51,544 nucleotides of DNA from a virus (Duplodnaviria > Caudoviricetes), in IMG/VR virus record IMGVR_UViG_3300045996_001835, positions 1 to 51,544 of that record, one strand, 5' to 3'. The first letter of the stretch is position 1; every line of letters starts with the position of its first letter. Position numbers and translations under genes: made by a program. The notes beneath the pieces were generated by a model. The model did not search any database. It had not been told where the DNA came from and saw nothing but the letters and a program-made list of their open reading frames with translations. This document shows, piece after piece, positions 5,316 to 46,811 of this stretch.

Positions 5316-6281
5316 ATGGAAAGAAGAAGAGCGCACATAGTCAATTACTCGGGCGGTATCGGTTCTTACGTGGCCGCTAAACGCGTTAAGGAACGACACG
5401 GCGAAACAGATTTGATTTTGCTATTTACAGATACGATGACCGAGCACCCAGACCTGTATCGTTTCTTGGTCGAATCTGCGGCGAGGTTGTTTTGTGGTGG
5501 CACGAATCGCCACGATGCTCGCAGGCTGGTAGACCTCGCCAGACAGATACCCGAACTGTCACGCGAGACCGAAATCCTGCGCAAGCAGTTAATTCACAAG
5601 TTGCGTAAAGCGGCGACGAGGGTAATACCTGGCCTTGAGTGGCTCTGTGAGGGTCGAACGGTCTGGGAGCTTTTTAAAGATGAAAGATTTATCGGCAACA
5701 CGAAGGCAGACATCTGCTCCCGTGTGCTTAAGAGGGAAATGGCCGATGGCTACGTGAAGGCATTCCACACGCCTGAAACATGCGTGCGATACCTTGGCAT
5801 AGACATCTTCGAAGAGCATCGATATCTCAGAGCAAAAGAGTTGTTTCGCCCGTGGGTATTGGAGGCTCCGCTTTGTGACAAACCATACTACAGCAAAGAA
5901 GACATGAAGAGAATTGTTGAGGAGGATGAAATGCAGATACCTCAACTTTATATCGATGGCTTCGACCATAACAACTGTGGCGGATTTTGCAGCAAGGCGG
6001 GTCAAGGGCATTTTAAAAATTTGCTCCTAAAAAGGCCCGCTTATTTCGGATACAACGAAGACGAAGAGAATGACACGCGCGCCATTGTTGGCGACTATTC
6101 TGTTCTTCGCGACCGCACAGGCGGCGTCACAAAACCTCTAACATTGACGGCACTGCGCAAGAAAGTAGAGGAGAAAAAACCAATAGAAGAAAACGACTGG
6201 CGCGGTTGTGCGTGTTTCTTCGACACGTCCGACTCGCCCGACGCAGCCGACCATGAATTAGAGGCGGTGACATCCCCATGA
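5316..6281 (+). CDS. PP-loop (PAPS reductase-like) protein with Cys motifs
   Basis: SGGIGS PP-loop, FTDT, CSRVLK, HNNCGGFC, GCAC. Confidence 0.75.
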   Translation: MERRRAHIVNYSGGIGSYVAAKRVKERHGETDLILLFTDTMTEHPDLYRFLVESAARLFCGGTNRHDARRLVDLARQIPELSRETEILRKQLIHKLRKAATRVIPGLEWLCEGRTVWELFKDERFIGNTKADICSRVLKREMADGYVKAFHTPETCVRYLGIDIFEEHRYLRAKELFRPWVLEAPLCDKPYYSKEDMKRIVEEDEMQIPQLYIDGFDHNNCGGFCSKAGQGHFKNLLLKRPAYFGYNEDEENDTRAIVGDYSVLRDRTGGVTKPLTLTALRKKVEEKKPIEENDWRGCACFFDTSDSPDAADHELEAVTSP

Positions 6282-10510: not shown

Positions 10511-11568
10511 GTTTCAGAATAACCAAGCAGGTCTGGAAGCATCCGCACCTGACTAACCCGACCGACAAATTAGTGCTACTCTACCTAGCCGACATCGCGC
10601 GAGACGACGGCCATTGCTACCCTAGCATCGCGACCATCGCCGAGAATAGCAGCATGACGGAGAACGCCACCAGCGCGATAATTCACCGACTCGCAAAGGG
10701 TGGATACCTCACGATTATAAGTGGTGGTGGCAGAGGCAAGCCGAACGAATATCTCTTGCATGTCGATCAGGGTAAGGCCATCGAGAAGGGTAAGGCTCAT
10801 TCACCTAAACCCCCATCCTCGCGTGGGGTTTCTGACCTAAACCCCCATCCTCAAACCCCCTTTGATAAACCCCCTTTACGGACGGTAAACCCCCATCCTC
10901 AAACCCCCTTTATGGACGTTCCCTATAAGGAGAACCATAAGTTAGATATTAATAACCCATTAGATATAACGCGTGCGCAGGCGCGCGGCGCGGGTGTTAC
11001 AGAGGATTTAGACCCCCATCGGCCGTTCGACTTGGATGGCGGCGAAGACAGCCGATACCAGACCCCTCACTACCTGACCTTGCTGGAGATATGCGACCTA
11101 GACGAGCGTGTCCTCGGTCATAGCATGAGGTTCAAAGCTACGGTTGCCTCCATCGCCGTAGACCTCGCCAAGATTTACACCGTCGAGCAGATGCGAAGAG
11201 CGAGGGCCGTGTGGCCCTACGACAACGCACCGACCCCGGCGCATTTTTCTAGAGAGATCAAACGACTGTTGAACCAGAAGGAGAAGGTTAGTGAGCGAGC
11301 ATCGCCAAGAAATCGAGAGGAACAACGAGACGCTACGAGCGCTGCACTCAAACGGCGCATCAACGGCGCGCTCAAACAGCACATGGGAACAGCCGGAGGA
11401 CAACCTGCCTCCCCTGACGAAGGCGGAATCGGCATGGCTGGTGATGGTGAACGACTTGCGCAATGCGTATCCAACATCCGATATCGCGAAAATCTCATTT
11501 TTGGAGATCGAGGATATTGCCCGGAGTTGGGCTCGGATTCTCGCGGCGGTTCCTATCGAACGCATTAG
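10507..11568 (+). CDS. Phage replication initiator (lambda O-like, N-terminal wHTH)
   Basis: KLVLLYLAD...CYPSIATIAE...IHRLAKGGYL...NEYLL; internal iterons. Confidence 0.85.
   Translation: MSFRITKQVWKHPHLTNPTDKLVLLYLADIARDDGHCYPSIATIAENSSMTENATSAIIHRLAKGGYLTIISGGGRGKPNEYLLHVDQGKAIEKGKAHSPKPPSSRGVSDLNPHPQTPFDKPPLRTVNPHPQTPFMDVPYKENHKLDINNPLDITRAQARGAGVTEDLDPHRPFDLDGGEDSRYQTPHYLTLLEICDLDERVLGHSMRFKATVASIAVDLAKIYTVEQMRRARAVWPYDNAPTPAHFSREIKRLLNQKEKVSERASPRNREEQRDATSAALKRRINGALKQHMGTAGGQPASPDEGGIGMAGDGERLAQCVSNIRYRENLIFGDRGYCPELGSDSRGGSYRTH
10806..10911 (+). repeat. Iterons of the putative lytic origin
   Basis: TAAACCCCCATCCTC at 10806, 10838, 10886; AAACCCCCTTT at 10853, 10867, 10901. Confidence 0.85.
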
Positions 11569-12184
11569 CGACGTGTACCACGCGACTGTCATTGGCTCGA
11601 AATACCCGCCGACTCCCGCCGACTTCGCCGAAACATGGGCGACTATTTTCAGCGATGAGCAGCGCGTCGAAAAGCAGGGCGAGTGGAAGCGCCATGACGA
11701 AAACGTGCGAGCACTCCCGGTACCAACCGACGGCCCTGGCTTGCGCGTTCACGCGCTACTCACGGCTCGCAAAGGCAACGCGATTGTTTGCAACTGCCCG
11801 CCGAAAAACGGCTACGAATGGCCCGCACGTCTCACAGCGGACGGCGCGGGTTGGGAGTGTCAGCAAAGGACGTCGTGTGGCTTCTGGTTGCCGGTCGAAG
11901 ATATGCCGGACGCTAGGGTACCGGAGAATCGCGGTCGCGTCGGCTTGGAGAGTGAGACCGTGGCGAAATTCAAGCCGCAGGAGCCAAAGGGTTTGTCAAT
12001 GGCCGCCGACGACTGCAACGTGTCGCTCGACGCCATGACCCCACAGCAATACATGGATTTCAAGAATTTCTACAAGTGGTGGCGCGAGCACTACGAGTGC
12101 CGACTTTCACCCGAACTGCTCGCCGAGCATTGGCCGAAATACGCCGCAACTCACAAAACGCTGACCGCACCTGAAAAGCTTTGA
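11291..12184 (+). CDS. Hypothetical replication-module protein overlapping the initiator 3' end
   Basis: GTG after GGAGAAGG; YPPTPADF motif resembles helicase loader/inhibitor-type partners; Cys pairs. Confidence 0.6.
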   Translation: MSEHRQEIERNNETLRALHSNGASTARSNSTWEQPEDNLPPLTKAESAWLVMVNDLRNAYPTSDIAKISFLEIEDIARSWARILAAVPIERISDVYHATVIGSKYPPTPADFAETWATIFSDEQRVEKQGEWKRHDENVRALPVPTDGPGLRVHALLTARKGNAIVCNCPPKNGYEWPARLTADGAGWECQQRTSCGFWLPVEDMPDARVPENRGRVGLESETVAKFKPQEPKGLSMAADDCNVSLDAMTPQQYMDFKNFYKWWREHYECRLSPELLAEHWPKYAATHKTLTAPEKL

Positions 12185-12200
12185 CCTGGAGGATCGAACA

Positions 12201-14684
12201 ATGAGCACAAACATAACCGACGTATCCCGGCGCATCGCCTGGAAGTGGGGACTGCCCGCCGCTGAAGTGCAAGAGCAATACGACAAAGACAACCGCTACT
12301 GCACTTCCTGCCGTCGCTGGGTAAACCGCCTGGAGATTGCAGTCTCGACTCTTCAGTGCCCGGACTGCGTAGGCAACAGCCGGTCCACGCGAACCGAGCA
12401 ACACGGTATCCGCCGAGCTGCACAGCGCGCCCGCGAACGCTACGAAGCGAAACGACAGACGCAAACCACGCCGTAAAGGGCTTTAAGGGGAAATATCATG
12501 TTTTGCCCAAATGACCTTAGGCCGTGTATTGATGACCTCTGCCACATGGGCGGCTGTCTTCGCTCAGGCACGTGCGAACCGATGGTATCCAGGTGCTTGG
12601 ATTGTGGAGAGCCTACCGAATCGGCCTATGCGACTCACTGCGACGATTGCTTACGCGACCACTATGCCAACGACGAAGAATAACGGGCCTAGAAGCGCCA
12701 CAGAGCGTTCCAAGGGTCCACGACTACCTAAAACAAGAGAACCTGCCCTCAGCGTCAAGATTTGGGGCCATAGCGACGAAAATAAACGACTAGACACCCC
12801 CGTTCTGCGGCCACAGAGTGAGTGTGGGGAGAGAAGGAGAGAGATTATGTGTGAATACATGGGATACGAATTTGGAGCGGGTAGCTACCCCGACTCAGTT
12901 TGCATTGACGGCTATTTGTGGGACGCCGATAGTGGCAGTGGTGATGGCCTGACTGTTGGCGGGGAAAAGCCCTGCCCGGAATGTAATCACGAGTCCTGGC
13001 TTCAATATGGGCTCGACAGTGTTGAAGAAGAGGGCGCTATCGCCGCCGCCCATAAGATGCCTCGCGAAAGTCCGTACTCAAACTCCGAGAAAAAATTGCG
13101 CTATGAAGCCGACCGGCCTACTTTAATCGCAGCCTGGCTAAAGGGTTATGACAGCGAAAAATCTAATCAACTTCTGGAGCAACAATGACACAACCAACCG
13201 AAAACCTGCCCCTGCTGCGACAGGTGGCAACAGCAGAAGGCTATACGATTATCTCCAATAACACGTCAACGCCCGAAGTTGTGAAGGCTTATAACGCCAG
13301 TGGTGGCAAATTACTACTGGAGTGCGAGCGGGACTTTTGTATTGTCGAATGGATAGATGCAGACCGGCAGCCCGTAATACTGCACTACTATTCTCCGCAC
13401 CTAGACCGCAATCATGTGGCTCGGCTGATGGAGAAGTGGCTGGCGACTCGAAAGCAGAAAGAGGCATTTATCAATGCCCTGATTAACGAGCTTTTGACGG
13501 CCGGGGATTTCGGCCCATTTGCAGCGGATGAGTTCGCCCTTGTATCGGCCCCACCCGAAACGTATCTCACGGCGCTCCTGGCTGTGGTCGGGGAAGGAGA
13601 GACATCGTGAAGCCAGTCATGCAAACGCAGTTCACATCGAAAGACCAATCGGTTCACGGCAACTGCTTCGCCGCTTGCGTGGCATCCCTGCTTGAATTGC
13701 CGCTTGAAGCGATGCCGTCATTTCTTAGCGAGGATTGGTGCAGTAATCTGTTCAGCCTTTTGAAGGAGCATGGTTATGATTTCGGCGGTTCGTTCTACCC
13801 AGAGGGTGCCGACTGGTGGCCGCGCTTGCAGGCACTCAGCCCCGGCGTTGACGGTTACTACATCGCTGGCGGGCCATCGCCTCGTGAATGGGTCAAACGT
13901 GGTCATGCGGTGATTTACAAAGACGGAGTGATGGTGCATGACCCTCACCCGAGTGGTGCAGGGATTTTGAGCGTGGGGCACGTGCTGATGATTGAAAAGG
14001 AAGGAGAGAACGATGGACGGTAAATGGTTACGTGGGGCGTTTCAGGGCGGTATCCGGCATTGCTTTAAAACAACGTCTGGAATTTCTCTGTGCGGTGGGT
14101 TTCAGGCCAATCCGGTTGTTGTTGGAGTTCTCGGCACAGACGACCCGCCGCTACCTGAATCGAATAACTGCCGCGAATGTTTAGCAGCGCGGGAAAAGAA
14201 GGAAGGTAAAGAATGAACGAAGAATTTGACCATGAAGGAACAGACGCTATTGTTTGTCCGCACTGCGGTCACGAACACCCGGACAGTTGGGAAGTATCCG
14301 GGCGCTTTGATGCCGGGCAACGTCGGTGTGGGCAGTGCAATGGCCTGTATCGGTGGGAGCGAGAAATCATAACCACCTACACGACCACTGCGCAGTTTAC
14401 GAGCGAGGAATTGGCAGCGCGGGAGCGGAAGGAGAATCATGTCGCAGGTTAAACAATGCCTTACGATCTCAGTGCCTATCGTAGATACGTTACTGAAAGG
14501 CGAACGGGTTGCTTTTGCCGAGGCGGTCAATGTCGCACTTAAAGAACACGGTGTCCCTGACGGCACGCCTGTTCAAGTCGATGTAATACCGCGCAAATAT
14601 GACTTTGAGGTGACGGCAACGTGGTCCCCGCAAGACGCTAATGCTCTGGCAGCGCGGGAGCGGAAGGAGAAAGAGAATGGATGA
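12201..14684 (+). other. Run of small coupled hypothetical genes (12201-12476, 12498-12683, 12847-13188, 13185-13610, 13607-14023, 14013-14216, 14213-14452, 14439-14684), many Cys-rich
   Basis: Overlapping start/stop junctions and RBSs; 13607-14023 has GNCFAAC...HAVI...HDP (papain-like triad pattern). Confidence 0.7.
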
Positions 14685-35615: not shown

Positions 35616-37858
35616 TGGGATTATCTGTTCGCTTGGTTGTTAAAGGGTATGTGGGTGTTGTCGGACAACCGGCGCGCCATATCACGCTTTCATCGCAGGA
35701 CATTGTGACTGCATCCAAGCGCCGCCCTCTCTCGCTCGAAAATGTGCGCCCGATTCGCAAAGACGAAGAATCGATTGGGGCCACAATTATCAACCCGATA
35801 CTGTTGTTTCCGGACACCGCGAACCGCAAAGACGCCTGGGGTAGCGCGAATGGTAACACCAAATATAACGAGCACCCAAATATCGATACAGGCGGTTATG
35901 CCCTCGCGTGGGAAGATTGGGCAGGACAGGCACTCTTGATCAGCGATCCGGCCAAATATTTCATCGGCATCAATGAAGCCTTCACGGTTCGGGCGTTTCT
36001 TGAAAAGCCACCCGGCGAATACCCAATATGGTGCGCCCGTTGGAATGGCTGGCAATTTCAGATTATTGACGGCCGCGCTTATATTATGAAGCTGGCTCCG
36101 ACATGGAGCCAGTCGGCCGAAAACGCCCTGGTGGCGCTACAAGCCGTGGAAGAGCCAACGACGGACCAACTTGATACCATTAACGAGCTACGGGCCAGTC
36201 TCTACGCCATTATCGAGTCATTGGGTATCGAGCCTGGAGGCGACGGCTGGTATGGGACGGCCTGGACTCTGACGTTTTATGCGGAGCCGCGCGGGGCGGT
36301 AACGGTGTTTTTGGGCGAGGGTGCGAAGTGGCAGGAACAGACCATCGAGGTGCCGGACATCCTAAAGACGCGCAAGGCGGGCACGGCCTGGGGCAGCGGG
36401 CCGCTCACGCTCGCGAGTTCGGCCGGTACGTGGTCTGTGCAGGTAGGCTATCCGAGCCATGCGGTCAGGGGCCGTATCCTTGTCGGCGAATACAACCACC
36501 CTGCGACTCAGGACTGGCAGGCAGCGGCCAAGAACATCATGGCTGACACGCCAACCGGCACCACAGCGACTATCGATATCGAGGATGAACCGGGTGTAGG
36601 GCTGGAGGACGGCACCGAATACACCAACTCAAAAGTCTATGTCAGCCTGACAACCAGCAACCCGCGCCTGACGCCATTTTTCTATGGCTGCGACATTACA
36701 ATCGACCCGGAACCGTTGGGCGAGGTAGGGGAGACGCATCTGGACACGGGTGACATCGAGCTGGACGACAATCCAATGATGGACGCACAGACGCAGTTCG
36801 AGGGCGATATGCGGCGCTCGCAGTTTGCCCTGTCGCTACGAGACGTGAATGGCCGGACACAGGCATCGATTCTCCACCGCAACGAAGGGCTGGCAAACCA
36901 CTATTGTGGGCTCTATGTGGACGGCACTGTAGCGATGGCAATGGGCGTCATTCAAAAGGCGCAAATATCGAACGTGGCCAAATCGGAAGAGAACGTTGGC
37001 ACGGCAGCCATGCGCGGCGACACCCATCTCGAAGTTGAAGCATCCGACATGTGGTTCATCCTTGAAGAAACATTACTGGGTGACCGGGAAATAATCGGTG
37101 ACGATCAGTATGTGGGGGCGGTGATACGGCGCGGTCTGAAGCGGGCTGGGATACCGGAAGAGCATATGGCCGGCGTGTCGGCGACGGCAGGCGTCAAGCT
37201 GGATAAGGCGGCTTTTGGTGAGGACTGGGCGCACGCGAGTGCGGACGATCAGAGCGTGGCGGATTACTTGCGGGGCATCGTCGAGGAATACGGCGTGGGG
37301 TGGATTCTCTATCAGAACCATTTGACCGGCATCTGGACGTATGCCAAGCGCAGCACCTCCGTAGCGCAAACCAATGGCGTGGATGCAGCATTTACGAGCG
37401 GTAGGGCAGGGCAGTCGTCAACGACCTACCCGCACCGGCTGCGTGCCCTTGCTCCATTGGACCTTTTGCGGGATACATCGGACTTTTACAACTTCTTTCC
37501 AATCCACGGCACGGACAAGGGCGACGGCACCGCGATTGTACACCACGAGATTTTGTGGCAGTCGTTCACCGGGCCTGTCGGTAACTTGCAATCACGCACC
37601 TATATCGGGCGCTACAAGCCACATCCGAAGATTTACAAGAGCTCGATCAGGACGCAGGGCAGCGCGGCTATCGTGGGACGCTCGATGCGCTTGCGACAAG
37701 GACGTCCACCGCGCTTTCAAAGCTTCCAGACCTTCTATCACAAGGGGCTGTACCCCGGCGACCGGATAACAGTCGATAACATCCCCTGTGACATCGTGAC
37801 GCTTTCGGGGAGTGCAAAAGAGGACCGGATGCAGGTTACGGCGCGGGAGGTTGAGTAG
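35615..37858 (+). CDS. Tail tip/hub protein
   Basis: 747 aa; C-terminal LYPGDRITV typical of hub proteins. Confidence 0.7.
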   Translation: MGLSVRLVVKGYVGVVGQPARHITLSSQDIVTASKRRPLSLENVRPIRKDEESIGATIINPILLFPDTANRKDAWGSANGNTKYNEHPNIDTGGYALAWEDWAGQALLISDPAKYFIGINEAFTVRAFLEKPPGEYPIWCARWNGWQFQIIDGRAYIMKLAPTWSQSAENALVALQAVEEPTTDQLDTINELRASLYAIIESLGIEPGGDGWYGTAWTLTFYAEPRGAVTVFLGEGAKWQEQTIEVPDILKTRKAGTAWGSGPLTLASSAGTWSVQVGYPSHAVRGRILVGEYNHPATQDWQAAAKNIMADTPTGTTATIDIEDEPGVGLEDGTEYTNSKVYVSLTTSNPRLTPFFYGCDITIDPEPLGEVGETHLDTGDIELDDNPMMDAQTQFEGDMRRSQFALSLRDVNGRTQASILHRNEGLANHYCGLYVDGTVAMAMGVIQKAQISNVAKSEENVGTAAMRGDTHLEVEASDMWFILEETLLGDREIIGDDQYVGAVIRRGLKRAGIPEEHMAGVSATAGVKLDKAAFGEDWAHASADDQSVADYLRGIVEEYGVGWILYQNHLTGIWTYAKRSTSVAQTNGVDAAFTSGRAGQSSTTYPHRLRALAPLDLLRDTSDFYNFFPIHGTDKGDGTAIVHHEILWQSFTGPVGNLQSRTYIGRYKPHPKIYKSSIRTQGSAAIVGRSMRLRQGRPPRFQSFQTFYHKGLYPGDRITVDNIPCDIVTLSGSAKEDRMQVTAREVE

Positions 37859-40153: not shown

Positions 40154-40893
40154 TGATTCGCTTCTCTTCGCGGCGAACGGACGGGGTTTTGAGTGGGTAT
40201 CGGCGTTCAATAATACCGGCTGAGTCAACGGGCGATGGCGGCTTCGTAAAACCTTCCGGCACTCCGACGTGGGACACAGGGCACTCGCTCTATTCTGGTC
40301 TGCGGGGCGATTGGCTGTTCAACGAAGGCAGCGGCATCGTCGTCAATGATTACGGCCCCAACAACTACGATCTGGAGTTACAGGGCGGCACAACGCGAGT
40401 ATCCACGAGCGAAGGCGCAGCAGTGCGGTTTGACGGGGTGGACGGTCTTGCTGTTGTAAGTAACGTGCTAGGCATTACAACAGCCGCAACGATGTGGATT
40501 CGGTTCGAGCCATTGACACTCCCGCAGTCCGCCGTACTCCTGAAACTTGGCGGCCCTGACGGCATGGGGCTTGGTATCGGCGATGTGGACGTGGACACCA
40601 ATGGTTCCAATATCGCGGCTTTGTTGGAGGCGGCGTACCACATCCCGACCACACGGGAAATCACTTTGCGGACGCGCAACATTGCAATGTCCGGCGCTTC
40701 AATCTACGACGGTAGTTACCCCGTTGAGGCGAGTGGCGGGACAAATACACCAACCACGCAGTTCATCGTCGGCGGGGTAGGTGGTGGGCGATTCTCCTAT
40801 TCCATCGTCCAACGCGTTATCGTGTGGAATCGAGAATTGACTTATGCCGAACTTGAGGCGCTCGAAGCCAACCCATATGCGGGATATCTGTAG
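40153..40893 (+). CDS. LamG/concanavalin A-like lectin domain protein
   Basis: WLFNEGSG...FDGVD...VIVWNRELT. Confidence 0.75.
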   Translation: MIRFSSRRTDGVLSGYRRSIIPAESTGDGGFVKPSGTPTWDTGHSLYSGLRGDWLFNEGSGIVVNDYGPNNYDLELQGGTTRVSTSEGAAVRFDGVDGLAVVSNVLGITTAATMWIRFEPLTLPQSAVLLKLGGPDGMGLGIGDVDVDTNGSNIAALLEAAYHIPTTREITLRTRNIAMSGASIYDGSYPVEASGGTNTPTTQFIVGGVGGGRFSYSIVQRVIVWNRELTYAELEALEANPYAGYL

Positions 40894-42094
40894 CCTTGAG
40901 CATTTCGTAGATTGTTTGCAGGCCGCCACCGAGCAGAACCGCCGCAAATGGCATAGCGAAAATCACGCGACCGCCGGCGAATGGTAGGCCCGCTGCCATG
41001 AGCGGGAGGGGTGCGAGAGCGAAGCAACATAGCATCGGCACCAAAGGGCTTACGCGAGCAACTAGGAGCCAAGCGAGCGCCACAGGAGCGATGAATGACA
41101 ACGACTGGAGCGCAAGGATGGCGGCATGATCTAAGAGCCATACGAAAGCATACAGGCCGGGTGCCTGGCCTTCCGATGGAGTGCCCGCGAACAATGTCAC
41201 GATGACTGCGAGCCAGCCGCACAGAGCCGCAGCGCGTGAGCGCGGGGACGCGAGCCGATGCCGGAACACCAGCCCGACTACGGGCGGCACAATGAGAATC
41301 AGACCGATGGCAGGTACCCACCAGTTACCAGTGCGCACCTCATCAATCCATAGGTTCGATACCGCGAACTTTACGCTTGCGGGCTGATTCGCAACTGCTT
41401 TCCCGTAGAGGTAGATCAGACCAGCACCGCCGCACATCAGGCACGCATGAAGGATGCCGCGCAGGCGGTAGCTACTTGAGCCGGGCAGACCTACGGCGAG
41501 CACCAGCAAGTACACCGGTGTCAGGATTCCCTGTTCCTTACTGAGGCACGCCCCAACCACCAGAGCCCAGGCAAGGGCAAGGGTTCGCGCCGCGCCACCT
41601 TCGAGATATTGCAGAAACGCGTAGATGGCGGCAAGGCAGAACAGCACCATCAGGTGATTGTCGGAGTAGGGGAACGAGGCGAGCCAGTAGCGGTTTGGAA
41701 CGACGTAGAACGACGCGGCAGCGGCAGCGGTCAGACAACCTGCAAGCTGACTCCTGGTAAGCCGTGCTGCGATCATGCCCGTTACTGCACAGATTGCCGC
41801 GAATAGCAGCAGCGAGAAGGCCGTGAGTGGTATGTACCCCCATCGGTCCACAGTGTAGAATTGGGCGTAGTGCAGGAATGACGAAAGTGGGCGGTAATAG
41901 GGCTGTTCAACGTGCAACCAGGGGCCGTACCACCATTGGGCGGTGCCGTGAAGCCGTGCGTATTCGTAACCGATGCGCATCGGTCCGATATCCGGGCCAA
42001 TGTTCGGCGGTGGAAGGATTGCAAGGAACGCCTGCCACTGAAAGACCAAGACCGCGACCATTGCAACTGCCCAAATTTTAAGGGACGACTTCAT
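40817..42094 (-). CDS. Multi-pass membrane protein, GT-C glycosyltransferase-like (surface conversion moron)
   Basis: About 10 hydrophobic segments, YYRPLS and LSKEQG motifs; TG-A-TAGAAT-N6-ATG leaderless start. Confidence 0.65.
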   Translation of the reverse strand: MKSSLKIWAVAMVAVLVFQWQAFLAILPPPNIGPDIGPMRIGYEYARLHGTAQWWYGPWLHVEQPYYRPLSSFLHYAQFYTVDRWGYIPLTAFSLLLFAAICAVTGMIAARLTRSQLAGCLTAAAAASFYVVPNRYWLASFPYSDNHLMVLFCLAAIYAFLQYLEGGAARTLALAWALVVGACLSKEQGILTPVYLLVLAVGLPGSSSYRLRGILHACLMCGGAGLIYLYGKAVANQPASVKFAVSNLWIDEVRTGNWWVPAIGLILIVPPVVGLVFRHRLASPRSRAAALCGWLAVIVTLFAGTPSEGQAPGLYAFVWLLDHAAILALQSLSFIAPVALAWLLVARVSPLVPMLCCFALAPLPLMAAGLPFAGGRVIFAMPFAAVLLGGGLQTIYEMLKATDIPHMGWLRAPQVRHKSILDSTR

Positions 42095-42111
42095 GGCGTT
42101 ATTCTATCACG

Positions 42112-42594
42112 TTACCGCCTCTTCTTCTTACTCGCCGATCTGGGGTCCGGCCCCTTACCTATCCAAACATACTGATTTATCTTGCGATTGTAGGCATATC
42201 CGATGGGCACCCATGCCTTCGTGACCGAGTTCCAGTAGACGGTAGGGCGAGGTGTTGGCGTAGGGGTAACGGTCTCAGTAACGATAGTATAGGGTCCGTT
42301 CGGGTTTCTCCAATTGCCATTGGCAGGGATTTCATATGTTCGGTTTGGAGAAAATACCTGTGACTCGGTTCTTTGCTGGCGAAGGCGTCCGAGTGCTGCG
42401 GTAGCTGCGGCTCGTTTTTCGGCATCGGTCGTCGTACCTCCACTGCCGCGCATGTACGACCGGACCACCGTGCCGTCCTTCTTCGTATATCCGCTCACCC
42501 GGTGACGACGCGGTGACTTACGCGCATCGGCAGTATCGAGTAACCCCGCGAGAAGCGAGGCGATCAGCAGAAGTGGTAATAATATTCTCCTCAT
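42112..42594 (-). CDS. Secreted hypothetical protein
   Basis: Signal peptide; VSGYTKKDGTVVRSYMR motif. Confidence 0.7.
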   Translation of the reverse strand: MRRILLPLLLIASLLAGLLDTADARKSPRRHRVSGYTKKDGTVVRSYMRGSGGTTTDAEKRAAATAALGRLRQQRTESQVFSPNRTYEIPANGNWRNPNGPYTIVTETVTPTPTPRPTVYWNSVTKAWVPIGYAYNRKINQYVWIGKGPDPRSASKKKRR

Positions 42595-43226
42595 GATTCA
42601 TCACCCTCTCTTGCCTTAATTCTCGAAACCACGAAAGCAGTGCTGGCCAAAAGTACGATGATACCTCCGAGAGCTTTGTAGCCGTAGGCGCTAGGTTCCT
42701 CGCTTTCTTCGGTAGCAGCTAGCGCCTCTACTTTCTTCGGCGTAGGATGTGGCTTTGCCTTTGCCTTGATAGGCTTATGGATTGGCTTATGTGTCGATCT
42801 GGGAGCAGCTTTAGCCGTTGGCTTCGGTTGGGCCTTCGGCTTCGGTGTAGCTGTCGCAAACATCTTGTTCAGCTCTTCGGTTGTGTAGACGGGCAGGGGA
42901 GTTGCGGTGCCTTTACGATTGGCTCGCTCGACCACTTCTGGTGGATGGGTTGGTATGGGCTCCGACGTGTCATAAACGTCGTCGCCAAAGGTGGACGACC
43001 GACCAGGCAGTATATAGGTCGATGAGCTGCTGGATGAGCTGGAGCTACTTCCGCCAGTGCAAACACTGCAGGTGCCGCCACCGCCTGAACAGTGACGGCA
43101 AGAGCTGCATGTTGTGCACGCATTACACGTCCCATTCGGATTACACGTAGCCGCCACAACCGGCACCACCGAGCCGACAACCAGGGCAAAAACGACCAAG
43201 ATATGATTCATGGCGGGTACAGACAT
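42591..43226 (-). CDS. Cys-rich exported membrane-anchored protein
   Basis: Signal peptide, CNACTTCSSCRHC...CSVC, Pro/Lys linker, C-terminal transmembrane helix. Confidence 0.7.
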   Translation of the reverse strand: MSVPAMNHILVVFALVVGSVVPVVAATCNPNGTCNACTTCSSCRHCSGGGGTCSVCTGGSSSSSSSSSSTYILPGRSSTFGDDVYDTSEPIPTHPPEVVERANRKGTATPLPVYTTEELNKMFATATPKPKAQPKPTAKAAPRSTHKPIHKPIKAKAKPHPTPKKVEALAATEESEEPSAYGYKALGGIIVLLASTAFVVSRIKAREGDES

Positions 43227-43253
43227 CGCCCTTCACGGATTGTTGCGCGCGGG

Positions 43254-43287
43254 CAAAGAAAAACCCAGCCTCGGGAGGGAAGCTGGG
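43254..43287 (-). terminator. Intrinsic terminator after rhuM
   Basis: CCCAGC...GCTGGG TTTTTCTTT on the minus strand. Confidence 0.7.
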
Positions 43288-43299
43288 AGAGAGTGGGGC

Positions 43300-44325
43300 T
43301 TAGGTGCTCTTTTTTCGAGTATTGGTATAGCCTCGTAACTGTTTCTGTTCGCGTGCTGCTTTGAGGGGCGCTGTCTTCGACGGCCTGGAGTTCTTGGCGT
43401 TAATGGCGCGATTTAAGATCATGAATTCATCCTTGACCTTGGTCTCCATAGCCTTGCGTGAGACCTTGCCCGCACCCTCTAGAATCGGCTTGTCATTGAA
43501 ATTAAAGAACTCTCGCAATTTTACCACCCAGTCCAGCATCCTCATTGGCTTCCCCTCTAGGCTACGCAGCTCAGCGAATGACAGAAATTGCTCTACTAGA
43601 AGTTCAAGCCTTTTCATTTCATCTTCATTTAAATAGTTTTTAGCGACACGGGCATCATCTAGGCTAATACGGTCGCCCTTCCATGAGGTCAGGCCCATGT
43701 ATGGTTTCGAAGCATCTGCGCGCTGAACGATAATCTCGGCTGCCGTGTGTCCGTGGGTGGCGTAGTGAAACTGATTCTGGATTACTGCAAAAAATTCGTG
43801 TGCCATTTCGGACTTGGCGTCGTAGTCGGTGCTGGTCGCGAATATGTCTGTGACTTTAAGATAGAATGACTTTTCGGAAGTTCGAATGCTTCGGATGCGC
43901 GCGAGAAGGTCATCGAAGCGCTTTCCCTCGCCCTCCATGAGTTTCTGCTCATTTAGAACGAATCCCTTGGTGAGGTATTCGCGTAACCTATTCGTTGCCC
44001 ACTGCCGAAATTTGGTGCCGATCTTTGAGTTAACCCTATAGCCAAGGGATATGATGAGGTCTAAGTTGTAGAATGTAACATTCCTCGTAACCTGTCTATC
44101 TCCCTCATTTCGAACTGTCCGGAAATTCCGGATAGTTGAATCTTTCTCTAATTCTCCCTCGTCGTATATATTGTTAATATGCTCACTGATGGTTCGCACA
44201 TCTCGCTGGAAAAGCTCGGCCATCTGGGCTTGGGACATCCACACAGTTTCGTCATATAGCGCGACCTGGACTTGCGGCAAGCCATCGACCCTACATAATT
44301 CTAGTTGACCTTTGCTTTCTGCCAT
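43300..44325 (-). CDS. rhuM: RhuM-family DNA-binding protein
   Basis: ETVWMSQAQMAELF, YNLDLIISLGYRVNS, FRQWAT..LREYL.KGF, GHTAAEII, AKNYL. Confidence 0.92.
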   Translation of the reverse strand: MAESKGQLELCRVDGLPQVQVALYDETVWMSQAQMAELFQRDVRTISEHINNIYDEGELEKDSTIRNFRTVRNEGDRQVTRNVTFYNLDLIISLGYRVNSKIGTKFRQWATNRLREYLTKGFVLNEQKLMEGEGKRFDDLLARIRSIRTSEKSFYLKVTDIFATSTDYDAKSEMAHEFFAVIQNQFHYATHGHTAAEIIVQRADASKPYMGLTSWKGDRISLDDARVAKNYLNEDEMKRLELLVEQFLSFAELRSLEGKPMRMLDWVVKLREFFNFNDKPILEGAGKVSRKAMETKVKDEFMILNRAINAKNSRPSKTAPLKAAREQKQLRGYTNTRKKST

Positions 44326-44484: not shown

Positions 44485-44817
44485 CTAGATAAAAACTCCC
44501 GGCGGTGCGATATTGCGCCAGTATTCACGCTCTGAATCAATCCATGCCTTGATAGTCCTGCTCTGATGTGACTCCGGGATAAGTAGAGCGGCAGTTAGTA
44601 GGCTGGCGCGTGGGGTCGGTTTTACTGGCTGTGTCCCCGTGCGCGTGTAGGTTTCGACGGACGGCACACTCACACCCATTTCTGCCGCCATCTGCACCTT
44701 CGTAATACCCCGCGCTTCGATAATCTCCCACACGATGCCTGTGCCGGTGGCGCGACTGTCGCGGGTGCCAGGCGGGCGGCCCTGGGGGCGCTTGACAGTT
44801 TTATTGGATGACTTCAT
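44485..44817 (-). CDS. XRE-like HTH protein (Aca-like candidate)
   Basis: RGITKVQMAAEMGVSVPSVETY HTH; GRPPG AT-hook-like motif; start inferred at 44817. Confidence 0.7.
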   Translation of the reverse strand: MKSSNKTVKRPQGRPPGTRDSRATGTGIVWEIIEARGITKVQMAAEMGVSVPSVETYTRTGTQPVKPTPRASLLTAALLIPESHQSRTIKAWIDSEREYWRNIAPPGVFI

Positions 44818-44820
44818 AAT
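44792..44820 (+). promoter_or_regulatory. Sigma70-type promoter of the mini-array
   Basis: TTGACA(44792-44797)-17-CATAAT(44815-44820); predicted start falls at the first repeat. Confidence 0.8.
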
Positions 44821-44824
44821 AGTT

Positions 44825-45018
44825 GTGTCAATCGAACCAGTATGGAATTGAAACATAGGTGGAGGCATAACGTATGTTTCATAATTTTAGTCGCACCGCG
44901 CTCTGTGCAAGCAGGGCAGGCGGATTGAAACACTGCTAGGGACGTAACTTGTGTTTCAGGTATTTTAATCGCACCGCGCAGGATAGGTTATTCACCTGTC
45001 CTGCAAGCGGATATCATT
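44825..45018 (+). CRISPR. Atypical CRISPR mini-array: 3 repeats, 2 spacers (29 and 30 nt), repeats 2 and 3 with inserted hairpins
   Basis: R1 GTGTCAATCGAACCAGTATGGAATTGAAAC (44825-44854); R2 ATTTTAGTCGCACCGC[18 nt]AGGCGGATTGAAAC (44884-44931); R3 ATTTTAATCGCACCGC[27 nt]AAGCGGATATCATT (44962-45018). Confidence 0.75.
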
Positions 45019-45271
45019 CCCCTCTTACTAACCGATTTGCCTCTTCAAGGGTGCAAACCCGATAGTCGCCGTTCTCGTCATGAATCTTTAAATAGTGTTC
45101 GCCTTGAAATACGGCTGCCTTTTTGTCGCCTGCCGCCCACCCGTTGAACTCTGATTCATCGTCGCACTGAACTGTCTCCATAGGCGCTTCAGGTTCTCCC
45201 CCATCGGCGTCTACAAAAATAATAGTTCCGGACTCGTGCGTGTAGTAGTAAGGGTATCCAGTATGTAGCAT
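45014..45271 (-). CDS. Small acidic protein (anti-defence candidate)
   Basis: 85 aa, D/E-rich, AAGGAG RBS. Confidence 0.7.
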   Translation of the reverse strand: MLHTGYPYYYTHESGTIIFVDADGGEPEAPMETVQCDDESEFNGWAAGDKKAAVFQGEHYLKIHDENGDYRVCTLEEANRLVRGE

Positions 45272-45282
45272 CTCAGTCTCCT

Positions 45283-45942
45283 TTAATCAACAACGGTGAA
45301 CTCTCCGCTTAGAACCTTTGCATCAATTTGCGCCTTAATCGACAAGGCTTTCTCTGCGGTTAGGATGCTCTCCGCTCCGTCAACGATGCGAGCCCCAACT
45401 CCGTCCTTAAGCTTTAATTGAACACGGCGTCCGTCCTGGCTCTGCGCGGTAATATCAAACTCCTTTTCAAGGATTGCATACTGCTCCATCCATTCTGGAG
45501 TTGATTCCGGAGTGTCGAGCGGTTCAGCTTTGCCGATGGTCACCTTTGCGATCTGTTCGCACAACTCCTCCAGCGTTGTGACCTCGCTCGACAGAGTTTT
45601 CGTGCTGGTAACATTTTGAAAGAACGCGGCTAACTCGCTTTCGGACAGAGCGGAATTAAGAAAGGCGCGGAATTGGGCCACTTCGATCTTATGGAAGCTC
45701 AAGAACTTTTCGATGTAAAAGGCAAGAGATGCAAATGCTTCTGGTGCACCTTCGGCGGTCCATGCAGCAGGGATGTTAAAACCTTCGATTCCTAACCAAT
45801 CTTCTACATACCATTTCTTAGCGTCTGCGTCCCACCGGGCCCCCTTCGCCTTGACTGCATCCTTTTTCTCGAAAGGCACATTCAAATAACAACGCTCTCC
45901 GAGGTTCTTACTTGCGACTTCAAATAATTCTTTGCTGTTCAT
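45283..45942 (-). CDS. DUF5710-like domain protein
   Basis: YLNVPFEKKDAVKAKGARWDADAKKWYV. Confidence 0.7.
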   Translation of the reverse strand: MNSKELFEVASKNLGERCYLNVPFEKKDAVKAKGARWDADAKKWYVEDWLGIEGFNIPAAWTAEGAPEAFASLAFYIEKFLSFHKIEVAQFRAFLNSALSESELAAFFQNVTSTKTLSSEVTTLEELCEQIAKVTIGKAEPLDTPESTPEWMEQYAILEKEFDITAQSQDGRRVQLKLKDGVGARIVDGAESILTAEKALSIKAQIDAKVLSGEFTVVD

Positions 45943-45956
45943 TTCGACTCCCTAAA

Positions 45957-46045
45957 TGCTTATACCTACAGTATACCCAAACTTACTTAGGGTTAAACAC
46001 TATTTAGAGAAATAAGTAGATTATTTTTTCGCCCTCATTTTTCCA
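45957..46045 (-). promoter_or_regulatory. Duplicated promoter/operator, copy 1
   Basis: -10 TATACT (45970-45975); core TATACCCAAACTTACTTAGGGTTAAACA is 27/28 identical to 46738-46765. Confidence 0.8.
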
Positions 46046-46722: not shown

Positions 46723-46811
46723 TGCTTATATATCTATTATACCCAAACTAACTTAGGGTTAAACATAAATCAGAGAAATAAATGAAATATTTTTTCGCTC
46801 CCATTATTCCA
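46723..46811 (-). promoter_or_regulatory. Duplicated promoter/operator, copy 2
   Basis: -10 TATAAT (46736-46741); imperfect dyad ACCCAAA-N5-TTAGGGT; AT-rich upstream element shared with copy 1. Confidence 0.8.

Follow-up and report, generated by a model that had tools for sequence, protein, structure and literature searches.

The DNA considered here (the window) is the complete IMG/VR virus record IMGVR_UViG_3300045996_001835, a phage of the Caudoviricetes, of 51,544 bases with an estimated completeness of 91%. It contains a short, self-contained and readily synthesised element of about 230 base pairs (bp), in which a predicted promoter is followed by three pieces resembling the repeats of a CRISPR array and by two interposed pieces resembling spacers. 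A repeat-end signature, array-like spacing, paralogous spacers, unusual pairing of handle with spacer and G-U pairs on the plus strand together speak for a mini-array that is driven by a promoter and derived from CRISPR, but did not arise through the usual acquisition of spacers. A promoter-driven mini-array had been proposed in a first-pass annotation of this DNA, and that proposal is supported by the repeat-end signature, the spacing and the near-consensus promoter at the start of the element. The promoter match, repeat ends, spacing, spacer paralogy, hairpins and strand bias of the G-U pairs can all be read directly in the letters. Our favoured reading, which we regard as evenly poised between right and wrong, is that the element encodes a phage array of CRISPR RNA (crRNA)-like anti-CRISPR RNAs of the Racr or Cracr kind, with masked handles and non-canonical repeat hairpins. 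Phage RNAs mimicking CRISPR RNAs have been described from 2023 on, and few have been tested for type I-C. The element is made up of the following parts (lengths in nucleotides, nt):

44792 to 44820, plus strand: predicted sigma-70 promoter, TTGACA-17-CATAAT, matching 11 of 12 consensus positions
44825 to 44854, plus strand: repeat-like piece 1 (R1), 30 nt, retaining just the 3' handle part GGAATTGAAAC
44855 to 44889, plus strand: spacer-like piece 1 (S1), 35 nt, of which positions 19-27 pair with the handle and with its own first 3 nt
44890 to 44931, plus strand: repeat-like piece 2 (R2), 42 nt, with 5' end GTCGCACC, 3' end GCGGATTGAAAC and an internal 11-bp bulged hairpin
44932 to 44967, plus strand: spacer-like piece 2 (S2), 36 nt, a paralogue of S1, of which positions 20-27 pair with the handle and with its own first 2 nt
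44968 to 45018, plus strand: repeat-like piece 3 (R3), consisting of ATCGCACCGCGC, a 15-bp hairpin, GCGGAT and a degenerate 3' end, ATATCATT, in the place of the handle

Each spacer-like piece pairs with the AUUGAAAC handle of its own unit, as the first-pass annotation had pointed out. The stem of unit 1 has 9 bp (TGAAACATA with TATGTTTCA, 44849-44857 and 44873-44881) and that of unit 2 has 8 bp (TGAAACAC with GTGTTTCA, 44926-44933 and 44951-44958); processing in type I-C systems leaves an 11-nt handle. The resulting hairpin A1 (44849-44881) has a predicted folding energy of -12 kcal/mol and a z score of -5.66, with none of 200 shuffled sequences folding as well, and hairpin A2 (44926-44958) reaches -8.6 kcal/mol and a z score of -1.33. 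The expectation that acquired spacers would not do this twice agrees with a comparison with 299 unique natural spacers of I-C type taken from 19 arrays: 278 form no perfect stem of at least 5 bp with the handle, 12 form one of 5 bp and 8 one of 6 bp, while a single spacer reaches at least 7 bp. In a second set of 40 spacers from short arrays on viral contigs, no handle stem of 6 bp or more was found. The foldback of the element thus exceeds what chance would give. Between the two units of the element, the second spacer position and its partner have changed on both sides, from a T-A to a C-G pair, which is suggestive of a compensatory change.

The units as a whole (z scores of -3.76 and -3.34) are each predicted to fold as two hairpins, A, formed by handle and spacer, and B, formed by the repeat-like piece, separated by an A/U-rich linker of 14-15 nt. 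Hairpin B of R2 (44896-44923) is a bulged stem of 11 bp with two G-U pairs, and hairpin B of R3 (44974-45010) a stem of 15 bp with one G-U pair, at -21 kcal/mol and with a z score of -5.24. Both retain an outer CCGC/GCGG stem and a 2-nt bulge, while their inner stems, of 7 and 11 bp, are wholly different in sequence; the structure of hairpin B has thus been kept, and its sequence not.

We are moderately confident, from the repeat-like pieces, that the element is of CRISPR origin. The I-C end signature GTCGCNCC-N(8-38)-GGATTGAAAC has a single match in the window, at exactly 44890-44931, that is R2, and none in 100 shuffled sequences. R2 is also the best match in the window (20.9 bits, E 0.011; next best, E 2.2) of a repeat covariance model trained on 36 distinct natural I-C-family repeats, whose E-values are rough. 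Another match of this model, at 37496-37525 on the minus strand (GTCGCC...CGTGGATTGGAAA, 8.6 bits, E 6.8), lies inside the gene for a 747-amino-acid (aa) tail protein and is probably due to chance. Among the three pieces, R2 alone has the ends of type I-C repeats (5' GTCGC.CC and 3' G.GGATTGAAAC). In the accessible text of the respective sources, the printed I-C repeats of Xanthomonas citri start with GTCGC and end with GGATTGAAAC, and I-C arrays of Thermus show the same ends, the 3' GGATTGAAAC being common to the I-B and I-C repeats of that genus. Natural arrays retrieved for comparison share these ends as well, including one at a locus (L009) with the order cas7-cas4-cas1-cas2-array. Subtype I-B, against which the first-pass annotation had measured the spacers, is no better supported than I-C, since R2 carries I-C ends and the match of R1 to the Rfam family CRISPR-DR2, an I-B-like family of 30 nt, is below threshold (full-length, 20 bits against a threshold of 37, E 0.25 in a 261-nt search; not significant). 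At relaxed thresholds, Rfam gave weak matches only, to CRISPR-DR2 in R1 and to CRISPR-DR9 in the tail of R2. With type I-C fitting better than I-B, the element is best called I-C-like, with some doubt.

The likeness among the three pieces is partial and falls short of the near-identical direct repeats of a canonical CRISPR array. R1 and R2 share only the 3' handle, about 10 nt, while R2 and R3 share only their first 18 nt (17/18, 94% identical) and GCGGAT. R1 has no stable hairpin of its own (z score of 0.28), and the 3' end of R3 overlaps the stop codon of an 85-aa gene on the other strand. Natural I-C repeats measure 31-37 nt and have a short GC-rich stem-loop, from which R2, with its 42 nt, and R3, with its 15-bp stem, both depart. 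The three pieces, taken as mini-array repeats in the first-pass annotation, are not true repeats of one another, and R2 does have the I-C end signature. What each piece has retained, i.e., the handle alone in R1, the 5' part and hairpin alone in R3, and both in R2, is what a gene for two crRNA-like RNAs would need.

The two spacer-like pieces, previously described as otherwise dissimilar, proved to be related, being identical at 18 of 27 ungapped positions, with ATTTTA following in both. Across 44,551 pairs of natural spacers, the number of identities never gets to 18, the maximum being 17. The whole unit, about 77 nt long, is a tandem duplication that has diverged, and S1 and S2 are in fact, as judged from this comparison, diverged copies of one sequence rather than independent acquisitions; although their lengths fit, they lack the unrelatedness of spacers in a canonical array. 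The motif TGTTTCA does stand at the same offset in both, at positions 21-27 of S1 and of S2, and would be owed in part to the common descent of the units. The spacers are not short, as had been thought on the basis of a length of 29-30 nt set against type I-B: that figure arose because ATTTTA had been counted into the repeat, and with the repeat starting at GTCGCAC or ATCGCAC the spacers measure 35 and 36 nt, within the natural I-C range of 32-37 nt (mode 34; n=299). Both pieces also resemble a ribosome-binding region, with GGAGG or AGGGA, 8 nt, ATG or GTG, and TTTCA, and where they differ at positions 7, 9, 11 and 13, one purine always replaces another. The beginning of a gene could be the origin of S1 and S2, or their target, in which case descent would account for TGTTTCA.

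The promoter noted in the first-pass annotation ahead of the first repeat is confirmed as a match at 11 of 12 positions, with 4 nt between the end of its -10 box and R1 at 44825, and transcription would be expected to start near 44827, at R1. Counting both strands, the 51.5-kb window has two sites with 11 of 12 matches, against 0.375 expected under a first-order Markov model, and 2 of 40 Markov simulations also gave two such sites. The plus strand is favoured as the RNA strand because the two repeat hairpins contain three G-U pairs, which on the minus strand would be A-C mismatches, because the element folds better on the plus strand (z score of -3.05, versus -2.56 on the minus strand), and because of the promoter. 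A second TTGACA lies on the minus strand (44828-44833), 30 nt from that of the plus strand, and is followed 17 nt on by TCCAAT (44805-44810); this pair was not called by the promoter scan, as its -10 box lacks an A at position 2. It may be the promoter of the neighbouring regulator gene, arranged back to back and interlocked with that of the array. The hairpins of the element were also considered as intrinsic terminators and ruled out, there being no T run downstream of them.

The features that surround or overlap the element are as follows:

44485 to 44817, minus strand: gene for an Xre/Cro-like helix-turn-helix (HTH) regulator (phrog_4779, E 3e-5, residues 46-122; its structure leads to HTH_3/HTH_31 clusters)
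44444 to 44414, minus strand: strong terminator, 3' of the HTH gene
45014 to 45271, minus strand: orphan gene for an acidic protein of 85 aa, preceded by a strong Shine-Dalgarno sequence, directly upstream of the element on the minus strand
45283 to 45942, minus strand: gene for a DUF5710 protein, neighbour of the 85-aa gene
44862 to 44927 and 44939 to 44968, plus strand: two mini reading frames of 21 and 5 codons, whose frames are not conserved past a 1-nt indel

The element thus sits in an accessory region, between the 85-aa orphan gene and the HTH gene. The HTH gene has four candidate starts (44868, 44856, 44817 and 44736), and its true start is uncertain because three candidate ATGs, unlike the starts of most genes of this phage, are without a Shine-Dalgarno sequence and the conserved domain starts at residue 46. 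The candidate ATG at 44817-44815 (minus strand) is contained in the -10 box of the plus-strand promoter. In a search of 5.8 billion proteins, the 85-aa protein had no match but itself; it belongs to no family and has no PDB relative, and its structure model is of low confidence (mean predicted local distance difference test score, pLDDT, 59.9). The succession of a small orphan gene and an HTH gene, both read in one direction, resembles an anti-CRISPR operon; no Acr or Aca homology stands behind this likeness, and no solved structure was matched by either protein. The viral-contig collection gave no relatives of the flanking proteins, and neither Cas8c, Cas5d nor Cas7 was found in the phage record, in a search whose positive controls worked for Cas5d and Cas7 only.

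Two further observations concern the surroundings. An 89-nt promoter-like direct repeat (45957-46045 and 46723-46811; 81% identical) contains the partial palindrome TACCCAAACT(T/A)ACTTAGGGTTAAACA. Two small-gene operons of the minus strand, one of them surrounding the element, each have a copy just upstream, and the repeat is probably a common promoter or operator. Downstream of the tail genes, an accessory block (40817-44325, minus strand) encodes a PMT_2-like membrane glycosyltransferase (a weak match), two proteins without a family and a RhuM-family protein (331 bits), whose gene lies past the terminator of the HTH gene.

Searches for relatives, for a host and for targets were carried out in several collections and gave nothing, or matches at the level of chance. 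The phage is far from those in GenBank, its terminase being less than 30% identical to the best match; the nearest relative in IMG/VR has a terminase 57% identical to it, and the two-unit element was not found in that contig. The listing of sequencing runs for the window sequence holds a single soil metagenome DNA run and no RNA run. Pattern scans of genome contigs gave nothing or two chance matches in coding DNA, and the patterns run on metagenome contigs gave 25 matches, all of them a chance spacer end beside an unrelated real repeat; exact-pattern scans of this kind, in the viral, genome and metagenome collections alike, would miss diverged relatives of the element. Chance-level matches only, with E 0.6 or worse, came from BLAST against GenBank phages and plasmids, and short chance matches only from 401 sampled Pseudomonadota genomes.

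A search for protospacers could have shown an ordinary mini-array. It returned no full-length protospacer among viral contigs or among GenBank phages and plasmids, and a degenerate pattern covering the S1 and S2 alleles or mixtures of them found none in the viral-contig collection. As stated in the first-pass annotation, the spacers are without a match elsewhere in the window, where a scan found none for either S1 or S2. The protospacer-adjacent motif (PAM) of type I-C is TTC. A PAM-plus-seed scan of about 1 Mb of loci gave 30 matches against roughly 26 expected by a hand estimate, which is chance level, and the same scan of the window showed no target beyond chance.

We infer that the element is transcribed, that its RNA is bound and processed by Cas proteins and that it has an anti-CRISPR effect. 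The phage, itself without cas genes, would produce two crRNA-like RNAs in tandem, each with the 8-nt AUUGAAAC handle, a spacer-like segment of 35 or 36 nt and a downstream repeat-like hairpin, and these would act as an RNA anti-CRISPR by hijacking Cas proteins of the host. Two routes can be envisaged, between which we see a roughly even choice. As decoys, in the manner of Racr, the RNAs would gather processing and backbone Cas proteins on their repeat hairpins, while the masked handle would deny Cas5 and Cas8 their site. As guides, in the manner of Cracr, the RNAs would use their two related spacers to target a host cas or toxin promoter that exists in two variants. The decoy and regulatory-guide roles put forward in the first-pass annotation would, by analogy, correspond to Racr and Cracr, respectively. 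The body plan is that of a two-unit Cracr, related spacers fit variant targeting, and masked handles could act like the missing handle of a Racr; it is on these grounds that we place the crRNA-like anti-CRISPR array at even standing.

Several points weigh against this reading. The end signature was tested after it had been noticed, so that its P value is optimistic, and the alignment of R2 to the repeat model covers the two ends only and skips the centre. R2 has 42 nt and a bulged 11-bp stem closing 8 nt before the spacer, when the 36 natural repeats have 31-37 nt; R1 and R3 went undetected by the I-C repeat model in the search of the window. R2 is the only one of the three repeat-like pieces to pass a statistical test, and it does so only through its ends. 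Rfam, run over the whole window, returned no family at gathering score, and the terminator scan found none after R3. The possible compensatory change amounts to one pair in two sequences, and unit 2 has lost the adjoining pair. Masking of the handle is contrary to the requirements of a functional guide. The genes on either side are all encoded by the minus strand, so that the element is antisense to them, which a plain antisense regulator would fit equally well. Finally, comparative support is lacking, relatives of the element having been found in none of the viral, metagenome and genome collections: conserved-core patterns gave nothing, or three chance matches in coding DNA, in the viral contigs, and handle plus spacer, in either allele, had no match in 185,579 species genomes.

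Among the other explanations, the main rival, which we consider unlikely, is an antisense or small RNA that is structured but has no connection with CRISPR; it would tune the HTH regulator or a neighbour by antisense pairing or transcriptional interference, and its likeness to repeats would be coincidental. The plus-strand promoter would fire against a minus-strand operon (the 219-aa, 85-aa and HTH genes), and the product would be a four-hairpin RNA complementary to the intercistronic region and to the 3' end of the 85-aa gene. This agrees with the position of the promoter inside or just upstream of the HTH frame, where its -10 box holds a candidate ATG, with the good folding of the RNA and the sub-threshold scores of all Rfam CRISPR families, and with the lack of a minus-strand terminator between the 85-aa and HTH genes, the only strong one coming after the HTH gene. 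The HTH start candidates without the Shine-Dalgarno sequence that most genes of this phage have would fit too. What it leaves unexplained are the ends GTCGCACC...GCGGATTGAAAC, the I-C-like spacing of 35 and 36 nt, the pattern of a first piece reduced to its handle and a last one reduced to its hairpin, and the likeness to two crRNA-like genes of other viral contigs described below. Regulation in antisense and mimicry of CRISPR RNAs are, moreover, compatible with each other. It is improbable that the element is a decayed remnant without function, gained by recombination from a CRISPR array of a host or from what was once a mini-array of a phage. The repeats are indeed degenerate, the searches for targets and homologues came back empty and no cas genes were found in the phage; however, a near-consensus promoter stands exactly at the start of the element, both handles are intact, and the two-hairpin folds have been kept in both units despite 33% divergence between the spacers and the complete replacement of the inner stems.

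The inverted repeats TGAAACA-N17/19-TGTTTCA could also act as DNA, as operators of the HTH regulator or as another protein site, and the presence of two copies, 77 bp apart, beside a regulator gene is in line with this. The half-site centres are about 26 bp apart, a spacing that is unusual for a dimer of the Xre type, the G-U pairs of the other hairpins point to RNA, and the 89-nt repeat with its partial palindrome appears a better candidate for the HTH operator than the inverted repeats of the element itself; we consider such a role very unlikely. To the same small degree, we would credit an ordinary mini-array directed against competing phages, whose spacers would have been acquired from two related elements at homologous sites. 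Viral contigs often carry mini-arrays with canonical I-C repeats, and homologous protospacers would explain the common TGTTTCA. The look of a ribosome-binding site with a start codon in both spacers would suit this reading as well. Yet no protospacer was found in viral contigs, matches to GenBank phages and plasmids were at E 0.6 or worse, the repeats are non-identical, unlike those of canonical mini-arrays, and handle pairing of a comparable extent occurs in 1 of 299 natural spacers. Least credible of all is that the units hold two tiny translated frames, of 21 and 5 aa, with starts hidden in the stems, forming a leader-peptide or toxin-like switch. GGAGG-8 nt-ATG in unit 1, AGGGA-8 nt-GTG in unit 2 and the four purine-to-purine differences would suit it, but the 1-nt indel shifts the frame of the conserved ATTTTA, the two peptides differ in length and neither is hydrophobic.

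With a crRNA-like anti-CRISPR array as the favoured reading, the question that the element poses is whether a guide becomes a decoy or a switch once its handle is hidden in a hairpin. A functional masked handle would provide a structural principle for RNA anti-CRISPRs and for designing conditional guides; otherwise, the locus would be one more degenerate phage mini-array. A more ambitious proposal, which we hold doubtful, is that the element represents a new design of RNA anti-CRISPR joining both published kinds: a multi-unit crRNA mimic in which selection keeps the handles locked by their own spacers, so that processing and backbone Cas proteins would load on the repeat hairpins while capping by Cas5 and Cas8 would be blocked, or would occur only once something had opened the hairpin, and in which the interlocking of the RNA promoter with the regulator start would make RNA and regulator exclude each other.

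Among published systems, Racr RNAs are solitary repeat mimics bound by Cas6f and Cas7f, to the exclusion of Cas5f and Cas8f because a 5' handle is missing, and their genes cluster with acr genes, according to the accessible text of the report (Camara-Wilpert et al., Nature 2023, PMC10651486). A type I-C member is known from the same text, RacrIC1, which shares both strand and transcript with its acr gene (PMC10651486). The element resembles them in being a case of repeat mimicry on a phage, with its own promoter close upstream and small accessory genes nearby, and its handle, locked in a hairpin, could act like the handle that RacrIF1 is missing. It differs in that a Racr is a solitary repeat without a spacer, whereas the element has two full units with intact handles, and in that RacrIC1 is co-directional with its acr gene, whereas the element is antisense to its neighbours. 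It is therefore not a solitary Racr: a promoter is present, as is expected within 250 bp of a Racr unit, but there are two spacer-bearing units, and their hairpins are unlike the natural fold.

Cracr arrays encode crRNA-like RNAs of phages, through which Cas proteins are directed to cas or toxin promoters and repress them; nine two-spacer I-C arrays of this kind are reported in the accessible part of the preprint, their RNAs targeting variants of one system type (bioRxiv 10.1101/2024.10.29.618823). As in the Cracr cases described there, the element belongs to a phage without cas genes found in its record, and has degenerate repeat-like pieces flanking spacer-like pieces in more than one unit; the layout of a degenerate repeat-spacer-repeat on a virus, outside a CRISPR-cas locus, is the same. 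Targeting of system variants in the Cracr style would explain why its two spacers are related but different. Cracr arrays are, however, defined in that part of the preprint by a spacer like a host CreR/CreA RNA, together with a cas or toxin promoter match of at least 9 PAM-proximal bp, whereas the element is likened to them by its layout. It departs from them further in its full-length spacers (35 and 36 nt), in handles paired with spacers, in the lack of a terminator, and in repeat hairpins that are enlarged and unlike each other. A non-exhaustive search of the literature on Cracr, Racr and mini-arrays, covering the accessible parts of these papers, gave no description of handle-spacer pairing.

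Two loci on other viral contigs, L092 (about 5804-6000) and L110, are single-unit crRNA-like genes with variant spacers and are likely members of the published Cracr class. They show the layout of the element more clearly, with the succession of a promoter, a degenerate first repeat, CGGATTGAAAC, a spacer and a repeat starting with GTCGC; their promoter reads TTGCTA-17-TATAAT, their first repeat has about 27 nt and a small hairpin of its own, and their spacer has 34 nt. Unlike the element, they have one unit, a canonical I-C repeat downstream that is followed by a hairpin and a T run, and no stem between handle and spacer.

Viral contigs also carry arrays with I-C-type repeats. One of them, L055, has an array of 30 spacers (11286-13300) directly after baseplate and tail-fibre genes, with no cas genes among the six open reading frames of at least 190 aa in about 6 kb upstream. 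Another, L046, has a two-spacer I-C mini-array on the minus strand, near 526-700, with the direct repeat GTGTTTAAATCCACCCTAAAATTTGA on both sides, which suggests an insertion or a duplication at the site. The element agrees with canonical I-C arrays in spacer length and in the ends of R2, GTCGC.CC and G.GGATTGAAAC. The repeats of such arrays, in contrast, are identical to one another, 31-37 nt long and with a short GC stem, their spacers are unrelated to each other and not paired with the handle, and they usually lie beside cas genes, as at L009. Set against all of these, the element is best regarded, for the present, as an unusual variant among the phage RNAs known to mimic crRNAs.

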